Shown in pieces: positions 6,092 to 57,214 of a DNA stretch of 64,000 nt. Origin of the DNA: Verrucomicrobiia bacterium (GTDB taxonomy: Bacteria; Verrucomicrobiota; Verrucomicrobiia; Limisphaerales; UBA11358). The DNA is taken from positions 5,312 through 69,311 of the forward strand of contig DASZAB010000050.1 of assembly GCA_035945675.1 (NCBI GenBank). The letters are read 5' to 3'. A program made the position numbers and the translations under genes. The notes under the pieces were generated by a model. The model did not search any database, had not been told where the DNA came from, and saw nothing but the letters and a program-made list of their open reading frames with translations. Position 1 is the stretch's first letter. Each line of letters starts with the position of its first letter.

Positions 6092-6126
6092 TTTTTTGAA
6101 AATGGAACATCGAACATCCAACATTC

Positions 6127-6204
6127 AACATCCAACATCCAACGGCACCGACAGTAGCGTGGCATCTCTGGAGGTTCGGCGTTGGGCGTTGGATGTTGGA
6201 TGTT
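6127..6204. repeat. intercistronic low-complexity hairpin (AACATCC words)
   Basis: Perfect 18-nt inverted repeat: AACATCCAACATCCAACG (6127-6144) and CGTTGGATGTTGGATGTT (6187-6204). It sits between the pyrK stop (6091) and the pyrD start (6233). Confidence 0.8.
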
Positions 6205-21176: not shown

Positions 21177-21200
21177 CAAAACGAGAATTGAAGATGGAGG

Positions 21201-21240
21201 ATGGAGGATGGCGTTTGTCCATCCTCCATTTTCTATTTTC
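21201..21240. terminator. intrinsic (possibly bidirectional) terminator built from GGAGGATGG words
   Basis: ATGGAGGATGG (21201-21211) pairs with CCATCCTCCAT (21219-21229) across a 7-nt loop, followed by TTTCTATTTT. It lies between convergent genes. Confidence 0.75.
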
Positions 21241-50124: not shown

Positions 50125-50591
50125 ACGCCGGCACACAATCGGCCGCTGGTGAGAATCTTTGCGCGCAAACCGCCACGGCCGTGGAGGGCAGCTTCGGCTC
50201 CCGGCGCAATGGCCTGGTTCATCCAGTGGCAAGGGCTGCACTCACTCACGCCTTCAAAGGCAACACCCTGCACTTCGAATTTCTTCCCGATCAGCCTGTT
50301 TAAATCCACACCGCAGGTGATGACATTGCGGCGCGTCACACCGGGCGATTTGTCACTCACCCCCAGGCGGCGGCAAAGGTCATCAAAAACCTCTTTCGCA
50401 AAGAAAGTAATCTGGCCCTGGTAATCGTTCTTGAAATTGAAAAAACGGTCGCCGGCCAGCCCCCGGCTGGCCACACATTCAACTTCGCGCACTTCGACCG
50501 CCGGCTGTTCCCCGGCCGGCCGGCCATGGTGGCCGAAAAAATTATGTCCCGGCGAAATGAACAGGCCGACGACTTGAATTTGTCCATTCAT
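50121..50591 (-). CDS. MOSC-domain protein
   Basis: 156 aa: GLAGDRF and ECSPCHWM are typical of the MOSC beta-barrel with conserved Cys. The start overlaps the nirA stop as ATGA (50588-50591). Confidence 0.75.
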   Translation of the reverse strand: MNGQIQVVGLFISPGHNFFGHHGRPAGEQPAVEVREVECVASRGLAGDRFFNFKNDYQGQITFFAKEVFDDLCRRLGVSDKSPGVTRRNVITCGVDLNRLIGKKFEVQGVAFEGVSECSPCHWMNQAIAPGAEAALHGRGGLRAKILTSGRLCAGV

Positions 50592-52378
50592 GTTTCCGCA
50601 CCAAACATCTCCTGTAAACGCCCGACGTCAAGCCGGCTCGTAAATTGTTGAAAGGTTTCCCTGCCCTGCCGGCGCCGGAGATAGGCGCGCAACATGCGTT
50701 CCACCGTGCGCGGCAATTCGGTCGCGGTGATGCCGGCAAAGACCTGGCGTCCGACGGCCTGGTTTCTGCCGAACCCGCCGCCGACGAACACATGATACCC
50801 GTCCACGCTCTCACCGCCGACTCTGGCTTTCACACCGAGACAGCCGATATCGCCCATGTAGTGTTGCGCGCAGGAATTCGGGCAGCCGGTCAGATGAATA
50901 TTCACCGGTTGGTCAAGCTCGAGCCGCTTCTCCAGATATATCGTCAGTTCCAACGCGTGGGCTTTGGTGTTCGATTGCGCATACTTGCAGTAACGATTGC
51001 CGGTGCAGGCAATGATGCCGCCGGCCGCGTTTGATTGTTTGGTGGCAAAACCAATTTTTTCAAGTGCCCGCTTGAGCGTGGGAACAAAGGCGTCCGGCAC
51101 ATTCGGGATGATGAAATTTTGCCAGACGGTGAGGCGGATCTCGCCGCTGCCGTAGCTGTCGGCCAGGTCGGCGACGCGCAGCATTTGCTTCGGCGTAATC
51201 TGGCCGGCGGGCAACGCGACGCCCACGTAATTCAATTCGCGTTGTTTCTGCGGAAAATCGCCAATGTGCGAATGCGGCAGTTCCTGGCTGGCCCAGCGCA
51301 TTCGGGCCGGATCGTAAGGTGCGCGACGGAGCGGTTTCCCCAGTTTCTTTTCCACTTCGGCGAGATATTCATCAAGTGACATCTTCTCCAGCAGATGCTT
51401 GAGCCGCGCCTTCTTGCGGTCGGTCCGGCAGCCGCGCTCGAGATAGACGCGCAGGATGGCAACGATGACCTTGTTGATTTCACCCGGAGGAACCACCACG
51501 CCCAGATCACGCGCAAACGTCTTGTGGCCCGTCGCACCGCCAAGGGCGATGCGGAAAACCACGCCACCCGGCAACGCATCGGGAGCGCCGGTCTCCGACC
51601 CGGCGCGTTCCGCAGGCGATTCGCGACGTGCCGGGTCGGAGACCGGCGCTCCCATCAATACAGCCTTCACGCCAATGTCGTTCGTGTCCTCGACCGAACC
51701 AATCAGCCCGCCGCCATCAAAGGCGATATTGAATTTGCGCGGCAGATCGTAGAACGAACGGTCATTGATGATGATTTGCGCCAGCTCATGGACGAAGGGC
51801 AGCACGTTAATGAGTTCAACCGGATCAATCCCCGCCGTGGGATTCGCGGTGAGATTGCGGATGTTGTCCGCCCCGGCGCCGCGTGCATGCAGGCCGACGC
51901 TTTGAATGCGGCGCAGGACTTCCGGCGCGTCCTTCGGCTGGATCAGGCGCATCTGAAAATTGGCCCGCGTGGTGATTTGCACATAACCGGTGGTAAGTGC
52001 CTGCGCAACGCGGGCCAGTTCGCGCAGTTGATGCGTGGTCACCACCCCGCCAGGAATCCGCAACCGCGCCATGAAGGCATCTTTGACCGGCGTGAGAAAA
52101 AACAAACCGTTCCATTTAAACCGAAAAATGTCTTCTTTGTCCGGCGCTTGGTTGTTGGCGGCATTCTCAACAATCTGCGAATACGCGTCCAGCGGATGCA
52201 ACTCACGCTTTACCCGTTCTTCCCAAATAAGATCCTCGTTTGTCGCGGCCGGGGCCGGTTCGACATCGCTGAATCGCTGTCCCCGGGCGGCGATGCCCGC
52301 AAACAAACCCGTGATATATTCCTTTTGCTCCGGCGTGAAACCGGTGCCGGCGGGCAGTTCGGGCAAAGCTGTGTTCAT
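50588..52378 (-). CDS. nirA: siroheme/4Fe-4S nitrite (sulfite)-reductase, NirA-like
   Basis: 596 aa with duplicated NiR/SiR ferredoxin-like halves. Cluster/siroheme Cys residues are CTGNRYCKYA and LTGCPNSCAQH. The nitrate-assimilation context favours nitrite reductase. Confidence 0.85.
   Translation of the reverse strand: MNTALPELPAGTGFTPEQKEYITGLFAGIAARGQRFSDVEPAPAATNEDLIWEERVKRELHPLDAYSQIVENAANNQAPDKEDIFRFKWNGLFFLTPVKDAFMARLRIPGGVVTTHQLRELARVAQALTTGYVQITTRANFQMRLIQPKDAPEVLRRIQSVGLHARGAGADNIRNLTANPTAGIDPVELINVLPFVHELAQIIINDRSFYDLPRKFNIAFDGGGLIGSVEDTNDIGVKAVLMGAPVSDPARRESPAERAGSETGAPDALPGGVVFRIALGGATGHKTFARDLGVVVPPGEINKVIVAILRVYLERGCRTDRKKARLKHLLEKMSLDEYLAEVEKKLGKPLRRAPYDPARMRWASQELPHSHIGDFPQKQRELNYVGVALPAGQITPKQMLRVADLADSYGSGEIRLTVWQNFIIPNVPDAFVPTLKRALEKIGFATKQSNAAGGIIACTGNRYCKYAQSNTKAHALELTIYLEKRLELDQPVNIHLTGCPNSCAQHYMGDIGCLGVKARVGGESVDGYHVFVGGGFGRNQAVGRQVFAGITATELPRTVERMLRAYLRRRQGRETFQQFTSRLDVGRLQEMFGAET
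51581..51653. repeat. perfect 24-bp inverted repeat element inside the nirA reading frame
   Basis: GGGAGCGCCGGTCTCCGACCCGGC (51581-51604) and its exact reverse complement GCCGGGTCGGAGACCGGCGCTCCC (51630-51653), separated by a 25-nt spacer. Confidence 0.9.
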
Positions 52379-52394
52379 ACCAATTGAAGCAATT

Positions 52395-53245
52395 AATCGG
52401 AGCTCCGAAGGAGCTTGGGCTGGTGGCCACGGGTGGAGTGCAACGGAACCCGTGGAAATAGAAGAGAATACAAATCTTCCGTCCCGAAGGGGCGACAGAC
52501 TAAACTCATCTCATGCCCGGAACCTACCATAATCTCAAATTCCACCTCATTTTCAGCACGAAACATCGTGAACCGTGGCTGAAGAACGATATCCGTCCAC
52601 GAATTCACGATTATCTGGGAGGAATCATCCGCGGAGAAAAAGGGGTGTTGCTTGAAATTGGCGGCGTCGCCGACCACGTTCATATCCTGTTTGGGTGGCG
52701 GACCGATGAGAGCATCGCCACCCTGGTCCGGAATCTGAAGGCAAATTCGTCGCGCTGGATCCATGAAACGTTTCCGGCGCTGCGTGATTTTGCGTGGCAG
52801 GAGGGTTATGGCATTTTTTCCGTCAGTCAATCGCAGGTTCCGGTGGTACAAAATTACATCCAACGGCAGGAGCAACATCATCAGATAAAAACGTTCCGCG
52901 AAGAATTGTTGGCCTTTCTCCGGACGCACAACATCGAATTTGAAGAGAAATACGTTTTTGACTAGTGAGCAATCAAGCTCCGCAAGAGCGTCAGCCGGGA
53001 GCCATGGGTGAAACGCTGCGCTACCCGTGGGTTCGAACGCCAAACAATTATTCCGCCCCATTGTGGCGGAGGATTCCTGCACCCCGTTGGGGCGCAAATG
53101 ATTCTCCCTCCCTGCTCTCCACGGGTTTTCACCCGTGGCCACCGGCCGCCGCTCCTTTCGAGCCGAACAATCCGCACGCATCCTGAACGGATGCAGGCCG
53201 GTGGCCACAGGTGGAGCGGAACGCAACCCGTGGAACCCGTGGACG
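52395..53245. mobile_element. RAYT-like unit: Y1 transposase gene flanked by arrays of CCAYGGGT-N-ACCCGTGG hairpins
   Basis: Hairpins at 52427-52455, 53002-53030, 53119-53138 and 53205-53232. Segments of about 38 nt at 52421-52458 and 53199-53236 are direct near-copies (GGTGGCCACgGGTGGAG...AACCCGTGGAA). No tnpB is present. Confidence 0.7.
52513..52965 (+). CDS. IS200/IS605-family Y1 (HUH) transposase, REP-associated (RAYT-like)
   Basis: 150 aa: YHNLKFHLIFSTKHR, HUH motif DHVHIL and catalytic-Tyr region WQEGYG. Confidence 0.85.
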   Translation: MPGTYHNLKFHLIFSTKHREPWLKNDIRPRIHDYLGGIIRGEKGVLLEIGGVADHVHILFGWRTDESIATLVRNLKANSSRWIHETFPALRDFAWQEGYGIFSVSQSQVPVVQNYIQRQEQHHQIKTFREELLAFLRTHNIEFEEKYVFD

Positions 53246-53299
53246 AAGAAACTTCCCCATTCATTTTTACGCCTTAACGGGAGGTGGGATTTTTTTTGT

Positions 53300-56200
53300 T
53301 CAATACACATCACGTTGATATCGCTTTTCCGACCTCAATGTTTCAACGTAGGTCTTTGCCTCGTCGGTCATTTTGCCTCCCGCTTTTTCAATAATCGTGT
53401 GCAACGCCGCCTCCACATCCTTCGCCATCCGCGACGCGTCGCCGCAAACGTAGAAATGCGCGCCGGTTTCCAGCCAGGACCAGATTTCGGCAGCGTGCTC
53501 CAGCATCCGATGCTGCACGTAGATTTTTTCCGCCTGATCCCGCGAAAACGCCAGGTCGAGCCGCGTCAGCAGGCCATCCCGGTGCCACGCTGCGAGCTGT
53601 TCCTCGTAAAGAAAGTCGCTGGCCCGGCACCGGTCGCCGAAAAACAGCCAGTTCCTGCCTTTCGCCCCGGTCGCCTGCCGCTCCTCCAGAAACGCGCGGA
53701 ACGGTGCGATCCCGGTGCCCGGTCCTACCAGGATCATCGGCGTGTCGCCGCTGGCCGGCGGCTTGAACCCACGCGAGGGTTGCACATAGACCCTCACGCA
53801 ATCACTGCCTCCCACCCGGTCGGCCAGAAAGGTCGAAGCCACTCCTTTGCGCCCCCGCCCAAAACTTTCGTAACGCACGGCGCTGACCGTGAGATGCACT
53901 TCACCGGGATGCGCCTTTGGGCTGGAGGCGATGCTGTAAAGCCTCGGCGACAGTTTGCGGAGCAACGGCAGCAATTCGCCCGGAGTCATCGGCGCCGGTA
54001 GTATTTGCAGGACATCAATCACTTCCCGACCCCAAAGCCATTGTTTCAAATCCGCCGCCCGATCCGGCGCCAGCAACAGTGCCAATTCACTGTCCGGGAC
54101 GTTCCGGGAAATGGCAGCGAGCAATTCCCGGGTCGGCTTCGTGATGTCGAACTGCTGGGCCAATGCCTCCCGCAAGGGAACGGTCAAATCACCGGCCCCG
54201 ATCGTTTCCTCGCCTTTGCAGCTCAACCATTCAAGCAAATGATTGACCAGTTCGGGACAATTCCTCGGCATGACGCCCAGCGCGTCGCCGGCCTCGTAAG
54301 TTAGACCGCTGCCGTTGAGGTCGAGTTCGTAGTGGCGGACTTCCTTGGCCGAACCGGGTTTGTTGAGCAGGACGTTTTTGATCAGGTGCGCCGGGAACGG
54401 ATGGGATTTGCCGTAGGCGGAATTGTCAGTAGCCAATAGTTGGTGGTCAGTAGCAATAGTCTGGCGACCATTCGTGGCAGTTACGGACATCTGACTGCCA
54501 ACTGCTGACGGGCTGAGTTTTTCCCAGAGGCCAGCCATCCACTCCTTGGTCGCCGCCTCGTATTCCACGTCGCACTCACCGCGCGGGATGAGACGTTGGG
54601 CGCCCAGAGCTTCGAATCGCGCGTCGAACTTCTTAGACGCGCCGCAAAAATCGGAATAATTCCGGTCACCGAGGCCAAGCACGGCAAACTGCAGGTTTCC
54701 CAGCTGCGGCGCATTTTCGGCATTGAGCCAGGACCAGAATTTCACGGCGTTGTCCGGCGGGTCGCCATCGCCCCAGGTGCTCGAAATGATGACGGCCTTC
54801 GATGCCTGCCCGAGCAGGGTCGGCTCACAATCATTCAACGGCAGGATTTTCGGCCCAAAGCCGCGCGACTGCGCCTCTTTTGCCAGCTTTTTTGCCAGCC
54901 CTTCCGCCGTGCCGGTCTGTGAACCGTATAACACCAGCAATGGCTCGCCGGTTGGTTGCGAAATGCCGTTGCGTTGTCCCGGTAAAGCCTCTCCGGGCGG
55001 CGATGGTGAAAGCAACCCGGCGAGAAAGCCGTTGAGCCAGGCGCGTTGTTCGGTTGTGAACGGGGCAGTCTCAGGAATAAAAGGAATCTGGTTCATTTTC
55101 TTAAGGGACTGGCGAACCGGACACTTTTCCAGACGCACCGCGCTGAACTTCAACTCCGGTTCCCGCGAAATCGGATCGTTCGCGCTGTGGGTCACGACAT
55201 TCACGCAGCCATCGGCGTCGTGGGATTGTCCCCAGTGGAACGGCATAAACACCGTGCCGGGGCGGAGGCCGGCGTCGAACTTCAATGTCGTTCGCATCGA
55301 GCCGCGCGACGATGTCAAACGCACCGCGTCGCCTTCGGCCAGGCCGAGCGTGTCGGCGTCAGCCGGATGTGCCGCCACAAACGGCGCCGGGCTGAGCCGG
55401 TTGAGTTTGGGCACGTGGCCGGTCTTGGTGCGCGTATGCCAGTGGCCGGCCACGCGGCCGGTATTGAGCACCAACGGAAACTCCGGCGAAAGCGCGTCAG
55501 CCGGCGGCAGGCAATCCACCGGATGAAACCGCGCCCGGCCGGTCGGTGTGGGGAAATTTTTATTACGATATCGCCGCGCGACGCCACGGCTGGTTGCCGT
55601 CGGGCACGGCCATTGTAGCGCGTGATGTTTCAGCCGGTCATAGGTGATGCCGTTCATCTGCAGCGAATACACTTCAGCGCAGCACCGTTTGTGTTCCTCA
55701 AAAACATCGCTCGCGCCGCCGTAGGAAAAAGGTTCCGGATAGCCGAGCGCCGCGGCAAAGCGAGCGGCAATCTCCCAATCCGGCCGCGCCTCGCCCGGTG
55801 GCGGCAAACAGGGCTGCAACAGACCGAGGCAACGCTCGGAATTGGTCATCGTGCCTTCGACTTCCAGACTCATGGCGGCGGGGAGAAGCACGTGCGCCAG
55901 CGAGGACGTTTCGGTGGGGTGATAACAATCCTGCACCACCACCAACCGGGCGCGGTCCAGTGCGCGGCGGACGCGTTGCGCCTCGGGCATCGTGGCCAGC
56001 GGATTGGTACCGGCGATCCAGATGGCCTTCACCCGGCCGTCTGCCAACGCCTCAAACATCCGCACCGCATCCAGGCCGGGTTGCGATTGAATCCGCTCCG
56101 CCGGCACGCCCCAGAGACGCGCAGTTTCCTCGCGATGCTGCGGATTGGTCACGTCGCGGTAGCCGGGCAACTGGCCGGACAAATAACCGACTTCGCGGCC

Positions 56201-57214
56201 GCCCATGGCATTGGGCTGGCCGGTGAGCGAAAACGGACCGCTGCCGGGCCGGCCGATTTTGCCGGTGGCGAGGTGGAGATTGATCAGGGCCAGGTTTTTC
56301 GCCACGCCGCTGGTGCTTTGATTGACGCCCATGGTCCACAAGCTCAGCGCCTCGGCGGACTGGCCGAACCAGAATGCGGCGCGATGAATGTCGTGCTCGG
56401 CAACGCCGCATTCGCGGGCCGCGCGCCCCGGCGGCCAGGCCTCGGCGGCTTCGCGCACCGCCTCCCAATTTTCCGTGTGCGCCCGGATGAACCGTTCATT
56501 GATCCAGCCCTGGGCGATCATGACGTGCAGCATGGCGTTGAGCAGCGCGATGTCCGTCCCTGGTTTGATGGCCAGGTGCAAATGCGCGCCCTCGGCTGTC
56601 GCGGTCCGGCGCGGGTCCACGACGATGGCGCGGACGCGTTTGCGGGACAACCGGCGTTTGACGCGCTGCCAGAGCACTGGATGACAATCCGCCATGTTCG
56701 CGCCCACAATCAGAAAGCATTCGGCGCGATCGACGTCGTCGTAGCACGTCGGCGGGCCGTCGCTGCCAAAGGCCATTTTATAGGCGCTCGCGGCGCTGGC
56801 CATGCACAGGCGGGAATTGGCGTCCACGTTGTTGGTGCCGATGTATCCCTTGGCGAGCTTGTTGAAAACGTACTGCGCCTCGGTCGTGAGCTGGCCGGAA
56901 ATGTAGAAAGCGACGGCATCCGGACCGTGGGCCTGGATGATATCGCGAAATTCCGCGGCGGTGTGCGCCAAGGCCCGATCCAAACCAACCGACTCAAAAG
57001 ATCCGGCGCGATCGGTGCGGACTTGCGCCGTGGTCAGCCGGTTTGACGTAGTGACAATCTCACCGGCGTGCGCGCCTTTTACACAAATACCACCCAGGGT
57101 GGACGGATGCGTCTTGTCGCCTTTGACCTCGACAATCTTACCGTCACAAACCTTCACCGCCAGGCCGCAGCCAACACCGCAGTAAGGGCAAATGGTTCGG
57201 ACGACATTTTCCAT
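53300..57214 (-). CDS. nasA: assimilatory nitrate reductase (molybdopterin, NasA/NarB-like) fused to a CysJ-like flavodoxin + FAD/NADPH reductase module
   Basis: 1304 aa. N-terminal 4Fe-4S CPYCGVGCG, Mo-ligand region SRLCMASAA and MGD-binding domains. Next come flavodoxin (LVLYGSQTGTAEG, FAVLGLGDRNY), FAD domain (RLYSIASS) and NADPH domain (MILVGPGTGIAPFRAF, YVCGD), ending RYQRDVY. Confidence 0.85.
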   Translation of the reverse strand: MENVVRTICPYCGVGCGLAVKVCDGKIVEVKGDKTHPSTLGGICVKGAHAGEIVTTSNRLTTAQVRTDRAGSFESVGLDRALAHTAAEFRDIIQAHGPDAVAFYISGQLTTEAQYVFNKLAKGYIGTNNVDANSRLCMASAASAYKMAFGSDGPPTCYDDVDRAECFLIVGANMADCHPVLWQRVKRRLSRKRVRAIVVDPRRTATAEGAHLHLAIKPGTDIALLNAMLHVMIAQGWINERFIRAHTENWEAVREAAEAWPPGRAARECGVAEHDIHRAAFWFGQSAEALSLWTMGVNQSTSGVAKNLALINLHLATGKIGRPGSGPFSLTGQPNAMGGREVGYLSGQLPGYRDVTNPQHREETARLWGVPAERIQSQPGLDAVRMFEALADGRVKAIWIAGTNPLATMPEAQRVRRALDRARLVVVQDCYHPTETSSLAHVLLPAAMSLEVEGTMTNSERCLGLLQPCLPPPGEARPDWEIAARFAAALGYPEPFSYGGASDVFEEHKRCCAEVYSLQMNGITYDRLKHHALQWPCPTATSRGVARRYRNKNFPTPTGRARFHPVDCLPPADALSPEFPLVLNTGRVAGHWHTRTKTGHVPKLNRLSPAPFVAAHPADADTLGLAEGDAVRLTSSRGSMRTTLKFDAGLRPGTVFMPFHWGQSHDADGCVNVVTHSANDPISREPELKFSAVRLEKCPVRQSLKKMNQIPFIPETAPFTTEQRAWLNGFLAGLLSPSPPGEALPGQRNGISQPTGEPLLVLYGSQTGTAEGLAKKLAKEAQSRGFGPKILPLNDCEPTLLGQASKAVIISSTWGDGDPPDNAVKFWSWLNAENAPQLGNLQFAVLGLGDRNYSDFCGASKKFDARFEALGAQRLIPRGECDVEYEAATKEWMAGLWEKLSPSAVGSQMSVTATNGRQTIATDHQLLATDNSAYGKSHPFPAHLIKNVLLNKPGSAKEVRHYELDLNGSGLTYEAGDALGVMPRNCPELVNHLLEWLSCKGEETIGAGDLTVPLREALAQQFDITKPTRELLAAISRNVPDSELALLLAPDRAADLKQWLWGREVIDVLQILPAPMTPGELLPLLRKLSPRLYSIASSPKAHPGEVHLTVSAVRYESFGRGRKGVASTFLADRVGGSDCVRVYVQPSRGFKPPASGDTPMILVGPGTGIAPFRAFLEERQATGAKGRNWLFFGDRCRASDFLYEEQLAAWHRDGLLTRLDLAFSRDQAEKIYVQHRMLEHAAEIWSWLETGAHFYVCGDASRMAKDVEAALHTIIEKAGGKMTDEAKTYVETLRSEKRYQRDVY

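Follow-up and report, generated by a model that had tools for sequence, protein, structure and literature searches.

A palindrome translated within nirA of a Verrucomicrobiia bacterium is probably a copy of a dispersed REP-type hairpin repeat in a permissive protein loop

We analysed a 64,000-nucleotide stretch of DNA from a Verrucomicrobiia bacterium (assembly GCA_035945675.1, contig DASZAB010000050.1, positions 5,312 to 69,311; hereafter the window), in which the gene nirA carries a long palindrome within its coding sequence. The host protein belongs to the ferredoxin-nitrite/sulfite reductase family. Indeed, it contains two stretches each of the 4Fe-4S/sirohaem domain NIR_SIR (Pfam PF01077) and the ferredoxin-like half domain NIR_SIR_ferr (Pfam PF03460), scores 707 bits against the NCBIfam model NF007126 ('NirA family protein'; cut-off 523), and has its best PDB matches in the nitrite reductases 3b0g and 2akj. 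A direct string check of the window located GGGAGCGCCGGTCTCCGACCCGGC at 51581-51604 and its exact reverse complement at 51630-51653, as given in an original prediction made from the same letters, and a repeat finder extended these perfect 24-nt arms to 28 nt with 96% complementarity (27/28) around a loop of 17 nt. The palindrome lies wholly within the minus-strand nirA open reading frame (ORF; Table 1) and is read through in frame, with a translation exactly as first written: ...KAVLM-GAPVSDPARRESPAERAGSETGAP-DALPGGVVFRIALGG.... No other local inverted repeat of the window is as long and as perfect, and a chance origin is excluded because none of 100 shuffles gave an arm match at three or fewer mismatches. 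At the same threshold, no further copy of the arm was found within the 64 kb of the window. The element region folds as RNA at -79.9 kcal/mol (z = -7.95) and the 73-mer folds as single-stranded DNA (ssDNA) at -43.7 kcal/mol (z = -10.3). A search of the region against Rfam returned only sub-threshold microRNA-precursor matches of the kind expected from generic hairpin noise, and a promoter and terminator scan of the region returned nothing, the hairpin being without a terminator-like tail. Two other local inverted repeats of the window, at 6113-6204 and 21183-21240, consist of the short simple motifs AACATCCAACATCC... / GAGAATTGAAGATGGAGGATGGA...; a similar motif, CAACATCGAACATC, adjoins a single arm in another locus (L113).

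The family to which the palindrome belongs was sampled by one scan of a collection of species-representative genomes with the 19-nt arm core GGAGCGCCGGTCTCCGACC. This core was present in at least 118 other genomic stretches, and about three quarters of the listed titles were metagenome-assembled genomes (MAGs) of Verrucomicrobiota (Limisphaerales, Pedosphaera, Verrucomicrobiia). The 73-mer is therefore not unique but has related copies in other genomes, and the proposal that it is a repeated element of the MITE (a miniature transposable element with inverted repeats) or repetitive extragenic palindrome (REP) type gained support. Among the matches listed, to which all element counts below refer, the same MAG often contributed several element-bearing contigs (e.g. 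JACQWK01 and JAYVCM01), and 143 elements were recognised, 90 as doublets and 53 as single arms. The doublets have a modal length of 71-72 nt and a common layout, namely an arm of ~26 nt (GGAGCGCCGGTCTCCGACCCGGCGCG), a copy-specific spacer of ~17-25 nt and the inverted arm. A tblastn search with NirA against the loci of the arm scan (at least 118) yielded no additional nirA copy.

Each arm is a small hairpin in its own right. Variant partner arms, such as ...CCGATCTCCGATCCGG... and ...CCGGCCTCCGGCCCGG..., differ at two positions that face each other within the arm, and we examined covariation in 69 distinct partner arms, that is, arms left free by the search pattern. An 8-pair bulged hairpin was paired in 89.9% of cells, versus 26-38% when the register was slid. 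Pair 10-18 occurred as GC 46, AU 11 and CG 2 and pair 11-17 as UA 43 and CG 13; these two pairs account for 26 of the 27 cells that had changed on both sides, compared with 9.1 such cells in shuffles, none of which (0/500) reached 27. Lone arms fold by themselves as ssDNA, and so do their variants (-9 to -13 kcal/mol). In doublets with unlike arms both small hairpins are thus preserved and the mismatches gather in the long stem. The conserved unit of the family is the small arm hairpin. By architecture the element is of the REP-dimer (REP doublet forming a hairpin, REPIN) type as defined, together with the REP-associated tyrosine transposases (RAYTs), by Bertels and Rainey in 2011 (PMC3116915), rather than a proven REPIN: two inverted units are separated by a short spacer, in the window as in the 90 doublets among the 143 elements listed, and each unit is a short imperfect palindrome, REP units having stems of 6-9 bp that frequently carry a bulge.

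Several composite forms were seen in the family. A second hairpin family (TTGGAGTTCAAGCTTTAGC..., with the peptide ...GVQASACSPDKLKLELQ...) is nested in the loops of GGAGCGC-type elements in L049, L112, L022, L058 and L078, and in protein P0081 a nested hairpin pair is read in frame within NirA. A subfamily with a further outer inverted repeat (GACACTGCCCCC ... GGGGGCAGTGT; L008, L011, L053, L061, L072, L092, L116) has a conserved tail and pairs an a-type arm with a GATC variant, giving a composite larger palindrome. On contig CBDHFO010000017.1 of Candidatus Marinacidobacterium (L029, L060, L091, L120), tandem arrays with periods of ~84-118 nt lie inside long ORFs, their units starting with the bulge-free arm variant GGAGCGCCGGTCTCCGACCGGCATCGCGCG; because the stretches between units are alike, they look like tandem repeats and not like a CRISPR array.

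Classical REPs and REPINs are overwhelmingly extragenic. This family departs from that rule. A first coding/intergenic estimate, based on stop-to-stop ORFs over single arms, was uninformative, as random positions scored equally high, and was discarded. An element was called intragenic if its ORF extended at least 80 codons on each side, and such ORFs were then checked against Pfam. Of the 143 elements, 56 lay within ORFs of this kind, and 17 of the 20 element-bearing ORFs scanned proved to be genuine proteins whose domains flank or span the insert. The verified hosts include an SNF2 helicase, a GH20 hexosaminidase (two copies), the glycogen-debranching enzyme GDE (two copies), valyl-tRNA synthetase (ValRS; two MAGs), two AcrB-type pumps, UvrB, MurB, aconitase, an apiosidase and a short-chain dehydrogenase, as well as RecQ and a Ser/Thr kinase, in which the copy lies within the zinc-binding domain and the kinase domain, respectively. 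The ValRS element occupies the same site and frame in both MAGs. Over 19 copies in the 17 verified host genes, all three frames of the element are used (8/6/5), giving the peptide pairs GAPVSDPA/AGSETGAP, SAGLRPG/RVGDRRS and ERRSPTR/PGRRPAL, so no particular peptide is selected. In these copies the sense-strand mismatches of the stem were A.C in 16 cases, G.U in 8 and other in 10. A long hairpin kept for the sake of the mRNA would make G.U dominant, which it is not, and there is accordingly no sign of mRNA-level selection. Intragenic copies are frequent and tolerated in this family.

We then compared NirA with its 120 best homologues and obtained DNA of orthologues, in 7 cases via contigs and in 80 more via a metagenome scan. 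A typical orthologue is 560-570 aa long, insert-free and reads KAV-K(L/V/I)GDE-(I/V)LF at the site; the insert-free alleles that the original prediction had proposed to look for are thus present in most orthologues. Inserts occurred in 28 of the 120, without exception (28/28) at one site after residue 245, and no other internal position of the alignment varies in length. This site holds near-perfect hairpins with different stems in different lineages (types a to f and a longer kind; Table 1), and four of these types (a, b, c and f) are also present at unrelated loci outside nirA. A distant NirA protein with the peptide segment and no palindromic DNA, which had been named as the contrary outcome, was not encountered: the carriers have palindromic DNA. 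In a neighbour-joining tree built without the insert columns, insert-bearing sequences were scattered over at least 8 places and the clade of the window was nested among insert-free sequences. A sibling copy, 94% identical to the e-type nirA copy of L147, lies in frame within the adjoining CysJ-like gene, 1.5 kb upstream. The longer hairpins of L141 and L205 encode ...SPLGGERARVRGEN... / ...PLPSEGRGR..., and the site folds as RNA at -139 and -124 kcal/mol, respectively.

Taking the family, its architecture and the NirA site together, we consider it probable that the nirA palindrome is a translated copy of a dispersed REP-type hairpin repeat of Verrucomicrobiota, lodged in a permissive loop of NirA. 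The element comprises two inverted units of ~26 nt around a variable spacer of ~20 nt, and in each unit a conserved GGAGC end precedes a small bulged hairpin; it would behave as selfish or neutral DNA that survives where it is harmless. The NirA loop is the one internal place of the protein that tolerates a change of length, occupied by several hairpin families according to lineage, with one family apparently having replaced another in some lineages. A regulatory device it probably is not.

Table 1. Coordinates of the nirA palindrome and neighbouring features in the window, and hairpins found at the corresponding site of other nirA genes.
Feature	Position or carrier	Strand	Basis or remark
Host gene nirA, 596 aa, ferredoxin-nitrite/sulfite reductase family	50588..52378	-	Pfam, NCBIfam and PDB matches
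Whole 73-nt palindromic element, REP dimer (REPIN-like), family 'a', consensus arm GGAGCGCCGGTCTCCGACCCGGCGCG	51581..51653	.	inverted repeat, folds, arm also present in at least 118 further stretches
Left arm, 24 nt perfect / 28 nt at 96%; 26-nt family consensus = 51582-51607	51581..51608	+	repeat finder, family comparison
Small bulged hairpin of left arm, REP-like unit, CGCCGGTC-TCC-GAC(C)CGGCG	51586..51605	+	covariation in 69 distinct partner arms; ssDNA fold of lone arm
Loop/spacer, 17 nt past extended stem (25 nt between perfect 24-mers), variable part of family	51609..51625	.	loops differ among copies
Right arm, inverted copy; 26-nt consensus = reverse complement of 51627-51652; small hairpin 51629-51648	51626..51653	-	repeat finder, covariation
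24 codons through element = NirA residues G243-P266, GAPVSDPARRESPAERAGSETGAP	51581..51652	-	ORF translation; disordered loop in model
Tryptic peptides spanning insert junction, e.g. AVLMGAPVSDPAR, AGSETGAPDALPGGVVFR			predicted from translation
IS200/IS605-type Y1 transposase gene, 150 aa	52513..52965	+	NCBIfam search
Four copies of a different ~55-nt repeat flanking the transposase gene	52401..52455, 52976..53030, 53127..53163 (inverted), 53179..53233		
ORF of 1304 aa, molybdopterin nitrate-reductase + flavodoxin + FAD-binding + NAD-binding (CysJ-like) fusion	53300..57214	-	
NirA-site hairpin, type a	window, L002, L004, L128		
NirA-site hairpin, type b, GGAGCGCCGGCCTCTGGCACGGCTCG	L003		
NirA-site hairpin, type c, GGAGCGCCGAGCACCGGYTCGGC	L005, L165		
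NirA-site hairpin, type d, GGAGCGCAGAGCTCCAGCTCTGCG	L007		
NirA-site hairpin, type e, GGAACGCCGAACTCCGATTCGGCGCG	L147		
NirA-site hairpin, type f, GTAG-tagged (GTAGG...CCTAC), 86 nt, GTAGGACAGGCGTCGCGCCTGT	L006/P0075		
NirA-site hairpins of ~180 nt, 'SPLGGERARVRG' kind	L141, L205		inserts of ~60 aa

To place the insert in the enzyme, we turned to solved structures and a model. Tobacco nitrite reductase aligns to NirA residues 79-223 and 271-554 and skips the insert, as do the other solved plant enzymes. In an AlphaFold model built from 45 orthologues (mean predicted local distance difference test, pLDDT, 64.5; predicted template modelling score, pTM, 0.62), residues 243-271 connect strands E235-242 and E272-279 and pLDDT is below 50 at 245-269, so the insert is predicted to sit at the tip of a beta-hairpin. 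A permissive site is also in keeping with the loops of more distant NirA proteins, which are naturally longer here (e.g. ETESGDIKPGVYF). The loop is probably disordered and solvent-exposed, with little effect on the enzyme, and for the nitrite reductase the insert is most likely harmless. The tolerated surface loop of the original prediction is hence retained as a low-confidence loop between two beta-strands that solved enzymes skip, from which we infer exposure and harmlessness.

The insertion had also been thought to be recent, which it is not. A nirA gene with 94.5% DNA identity to that of the window (L002) has this insert too, and the arms there differ by three substitutions that each happen to create G.U on the sense strand, so the insertion predates the divergence of the two (~5.5% in nirA DNA); a homologous insert of 24 codons followed by D-A-L-P-P-G is moreover found in orthologues that are merely 73-76% identical in DNA. 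Another close relative, L001 (94.8% identical), is without 75 nt and reads ATT GGC GCG CCG GCT GGC GTG with the ORF intact, the sequence expected from a deletion between two CGCCGG direct repeats of an L002-like allele. Since the element-derived 'GAP' is retained, this allele is a deletion scar and not an empty site; the true empty sites are the KxGDE alleles.

How often the NirA site was colonised is less clear-cut. Types a-d agree in their exact 24-codon (72-nt) length, their frame, the downstream D-A-L-P-P-G and traces of similarity in the loop (AGTTCC...CAACG), and these four may share one origin. It could be argued that all NirA inserts go back to one ancient insertion, made patchy by repeated loss or by transfer of short patches, an account that we regard as possible but not probable. 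Over the whole gene, L126 is the nearest backbone relative of the window nirA, 6-8 points closer than L003, L005 and L007, and yet over the 60-120 nt next to the insert its similarity to these three equals that to L126. This is a weak hint that a short patch around the insert may have been transferred, from a flank comparison that spans those 60-120 nt. However, junctions, lengths and families differ in L147 (junction ...GAP-MDG-VFF, with the sibling copy nearby), L006/P0075, P0078/P0096, P0025 and L141/L205, so that at least 4-5 colonisations were independent.

The CysJ-like flavoprotein gene upstream of nirA offers a parallel. It carries in-frame hairpins at one flavodoxin-FAD linker site, of the a/b type in L005 (471-555) and L007 (965-1050) and of the GTAG type in L006 (1253-1385), L128 (1-120) and L004 (1340-1385), and gene calling splits the L004 version into two ORFs with their junction at the element. 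The e-type copy in the CysJ-like gene of L147 (625-710) occupies a site other than the linker. In the window, molybdopterin and CysJ-like parts are fused in one ORF, and they form separate adjacent genes in L003 and L006; the flavodoxin-FAD linker of the window (...GLWEKL-SPSAVGSQMSVTATNGRQTIATDHQLLATDNSA-YGKSHPFP...) is long exactly where other genomes carry hairpins.

With respect to mobilisation, the architecture of the REP-type repeat would be compatible with movement as ssDNA by a HUH/Y1 (RAYT-like) transposase that recognises the small hairpin. An IS200/IS605-type gene adjoins nirA in the window and is flanked by four copies of a repeat different from the nirA element (Table 1), so that 52393-53300 forms a REPtron-like arrangement with a hairpin family of its own. 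A tblastn search with its protein found four more genes (L005, L016, L055, L068); in L005 the gene likewise lies beside nirA (77% aa identity, syntenic), and its start is present in L001. Alternatively, the element could be a classical MITE, a deletion derivative of an insertion sequence (IS) of the DDE type. MITEs have terminal inverted repeats (TIRs) that are bound by DDE transposases, and leave target-site duplications. A length of ~70 bp, inverted termini, dispersal and the absence of coding capacity would all suit this explanation. Nevertheless, we judge it very unlikely, as inspection of the flanks of ~140 copies revealed no recurrent direct repeat, more than a third of the elements listed (53/143) are single arms, and no related full-length IS was seen in the loci examined. 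The covarying hairpin in each arm would moreover be expected for recognition of ssDNA hairpins and not for duplex-bound TIRs. In L094 (320-1720), a pair of inverted single arms (322-340, plus; 1702-1720, minus) encloses two unrelated genes and no transposase; the first of these genes has a PD-(D/E)XK-like motif by eye, and the whole may be a small cassette bounded by REP units.

Very unlikely too, in our view, is that the hairpin is an RNA or DNA structure selected for the sake of nirA, such as a translational pause between the enzyme halves or an aid to mRNA stability, whose stem is kept by compensation. This explanation would account for the same position, 24-codon length and frame in orthologues that are 70-76% identical in DNA. 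Furthermore, in the eight 72-nt versions from orthologues, 95.7% of the stem cells are paired and 10 of 26 pairs have changed on both sides, which none of 500 shuffles reached, and by our own count the sense-strand mismatches of the nirA set are 7 G.U to 2 A.C. The latter ratio is not significant, however (one-sided binomial ~0.09), and runs opposite to the A.C 16 to G.U 8 of the 17 other host genes. Compensatory evolution of a selected nirA stem was rejected given that many unrelated loci have the same stem variants (types a, b, c and f); since they are not private to nirA, and in view of the L147 sibling, the double changes reflect an exchange of family members rather than slow compensation. 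Most orthologues, the nearest backbone relatives included, do without an insert, and the close relative L001 deleted it with its ORF intact. The lack of a terminator-like tail and of an Rfam match beyond hairpin noise also speaks against regulation. As for an assembly or chimera artefact, assembler errors can create perfect palindromes, but the chance of this is negligible because P0002-P0005, independently assembled and 94-99% identical, share the insert of P0001, so that it is present in five assemblies from different sources, while L002 DNA shows it with three substitutions and related inserts are found in dozens of metagenomes.

Several observations count against a REP-type repeat in a harmless NirA loop and temper our confidence. 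The conserved end tag is GGAG(C) and not GTAG/CGTC, GTAG being the defining 5' tag of RAYT-mobilised REPs. No RAYT flanked by the GGAG family was found with a single query protein in the sampled loci, where all five IS200/IS605-type genes are flanked by other hairpins, and RAYT-like single-strand mobilisation is thus suggested by architecture. The window holds just one copy of the element. The structure model of NirA is of only moderate quality, and tolerance of the insert by the enzyme is suggested by conservation of the ORF. Finally, the arms are near-perfect even in old-looking copies (nirA types a-d; the same-site ValRS element of two MAGs). Simple neutral decay does not predict this, and near-perfect old arms would need re-insertion, conversion by other copies, self-correction of the hairpin or selection.

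One speculative and, on balance, doubtful possibility is that the hairpin elements of these Verrucomicrobiota, instead of landing randomly and being sifted by selection afterwards, are drawn to sites that already have a hairpin, by homing, by nesting, by replacing the resident or by conversion of its arms. If this were true, a permissive loop, once colonised, would become a long-lived 'landing pad' with turnover of its occupants, which would explain why one NirA loop and one CysJ-like linker have become home to at least five hairpin families, why the arms of old insertions are near-perfect and why hairpins nest in loops (L049, L112, P0081). The NirA loop and the CysJ-like linker together form a natural allele series, with empty, nested and deleted sites and sites filled by different families, that could be used to test how REP-type elements choose their sites and how long palindromes are kept perfect.

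The repeat also matters beyond nirA. A free-living, GC-rich phylum tolerates hairpin DNA in essential genes (ValRS, UvrB, MurB, aconitase) on a scale reminiscent of Rickettsia. For annotation, mirror-like peptides such as GAPVSDPA...AGSETGAP, SAGLRPG...RVGDRRS and ERRSPTR...PGRRPAL, where met with in Verrucomicrobiota proteins, should be read as loops that stem from a repeat and not as domains or errors, and such loops inflate the apparent diversity of metagenomic proteins.

Among known systems, REP dimers and REPINs (PMC3116915, PMC3733652) come closest: they too are inverted, imperfect palindromes of ~25 nt around a short variable spacer, dispersed and non-coding, and they share with the GGAG family the occurrence of single units, of dimers with unlike arms and of subfamilies with compensated stems. 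The GGAG family differs in its GGAG(C) tag, in that no RAYT flanked by its units was found in the sampled loci, and in the intragenic position of about a third of its copies among the matches listed; its stem is unlike those of the families named in the text of PMC3733652. In that work, Di Nocera et al. (2013) described GTAG- and CGTC-tagged REPs and their dimers, with degenerate tags such as GTGG in O. terrae. They reported REPs that lie entirely inside ORFs, more than half of the intragenic inserts being dimers or groups with a coding length of 20-30 aa. In their counts the verrucomicrobium Opitutus terrae had the largest number of intragenic GTAG REPs, and they found recB of two Xanthomonas species to carry different REPs at roughly one site. 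Bacterial MITEs (Correia/NEMIS, ERIC, RUP) are likewise small, non-autonomous, hairpin-forming, dispersed and co-transcribable with genes. Around the nirA-type elements, in contrast, no duplications were seen, and each of their arms has a conserved hairpin. There is also a likeness to the Rickettsia palindromic elements (RPEs; Ogata et al. 2000, cited in PMC3733652), the classic in-frame palindromes of functional genes, housekeeping genes included, which are translated as additional stretches of peptide and are thought to lie in permissive parts of the protein surface. The likeness is one of behaviour only. RPEs measure ~100-150 bp, are AT-rich and are confined to Rickettsia, whereas the host here is a free-living, GC-rich verrucomicrobium, so that host, GC content and length all set them apart from the nirA element. 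REP dimers inside ORFs are already known, Opitutus included; less seems to have been written about a share of intragenic copies as high as that of the GGAG family, and about one protein loop in which several hairpin families have repeatedly settled.

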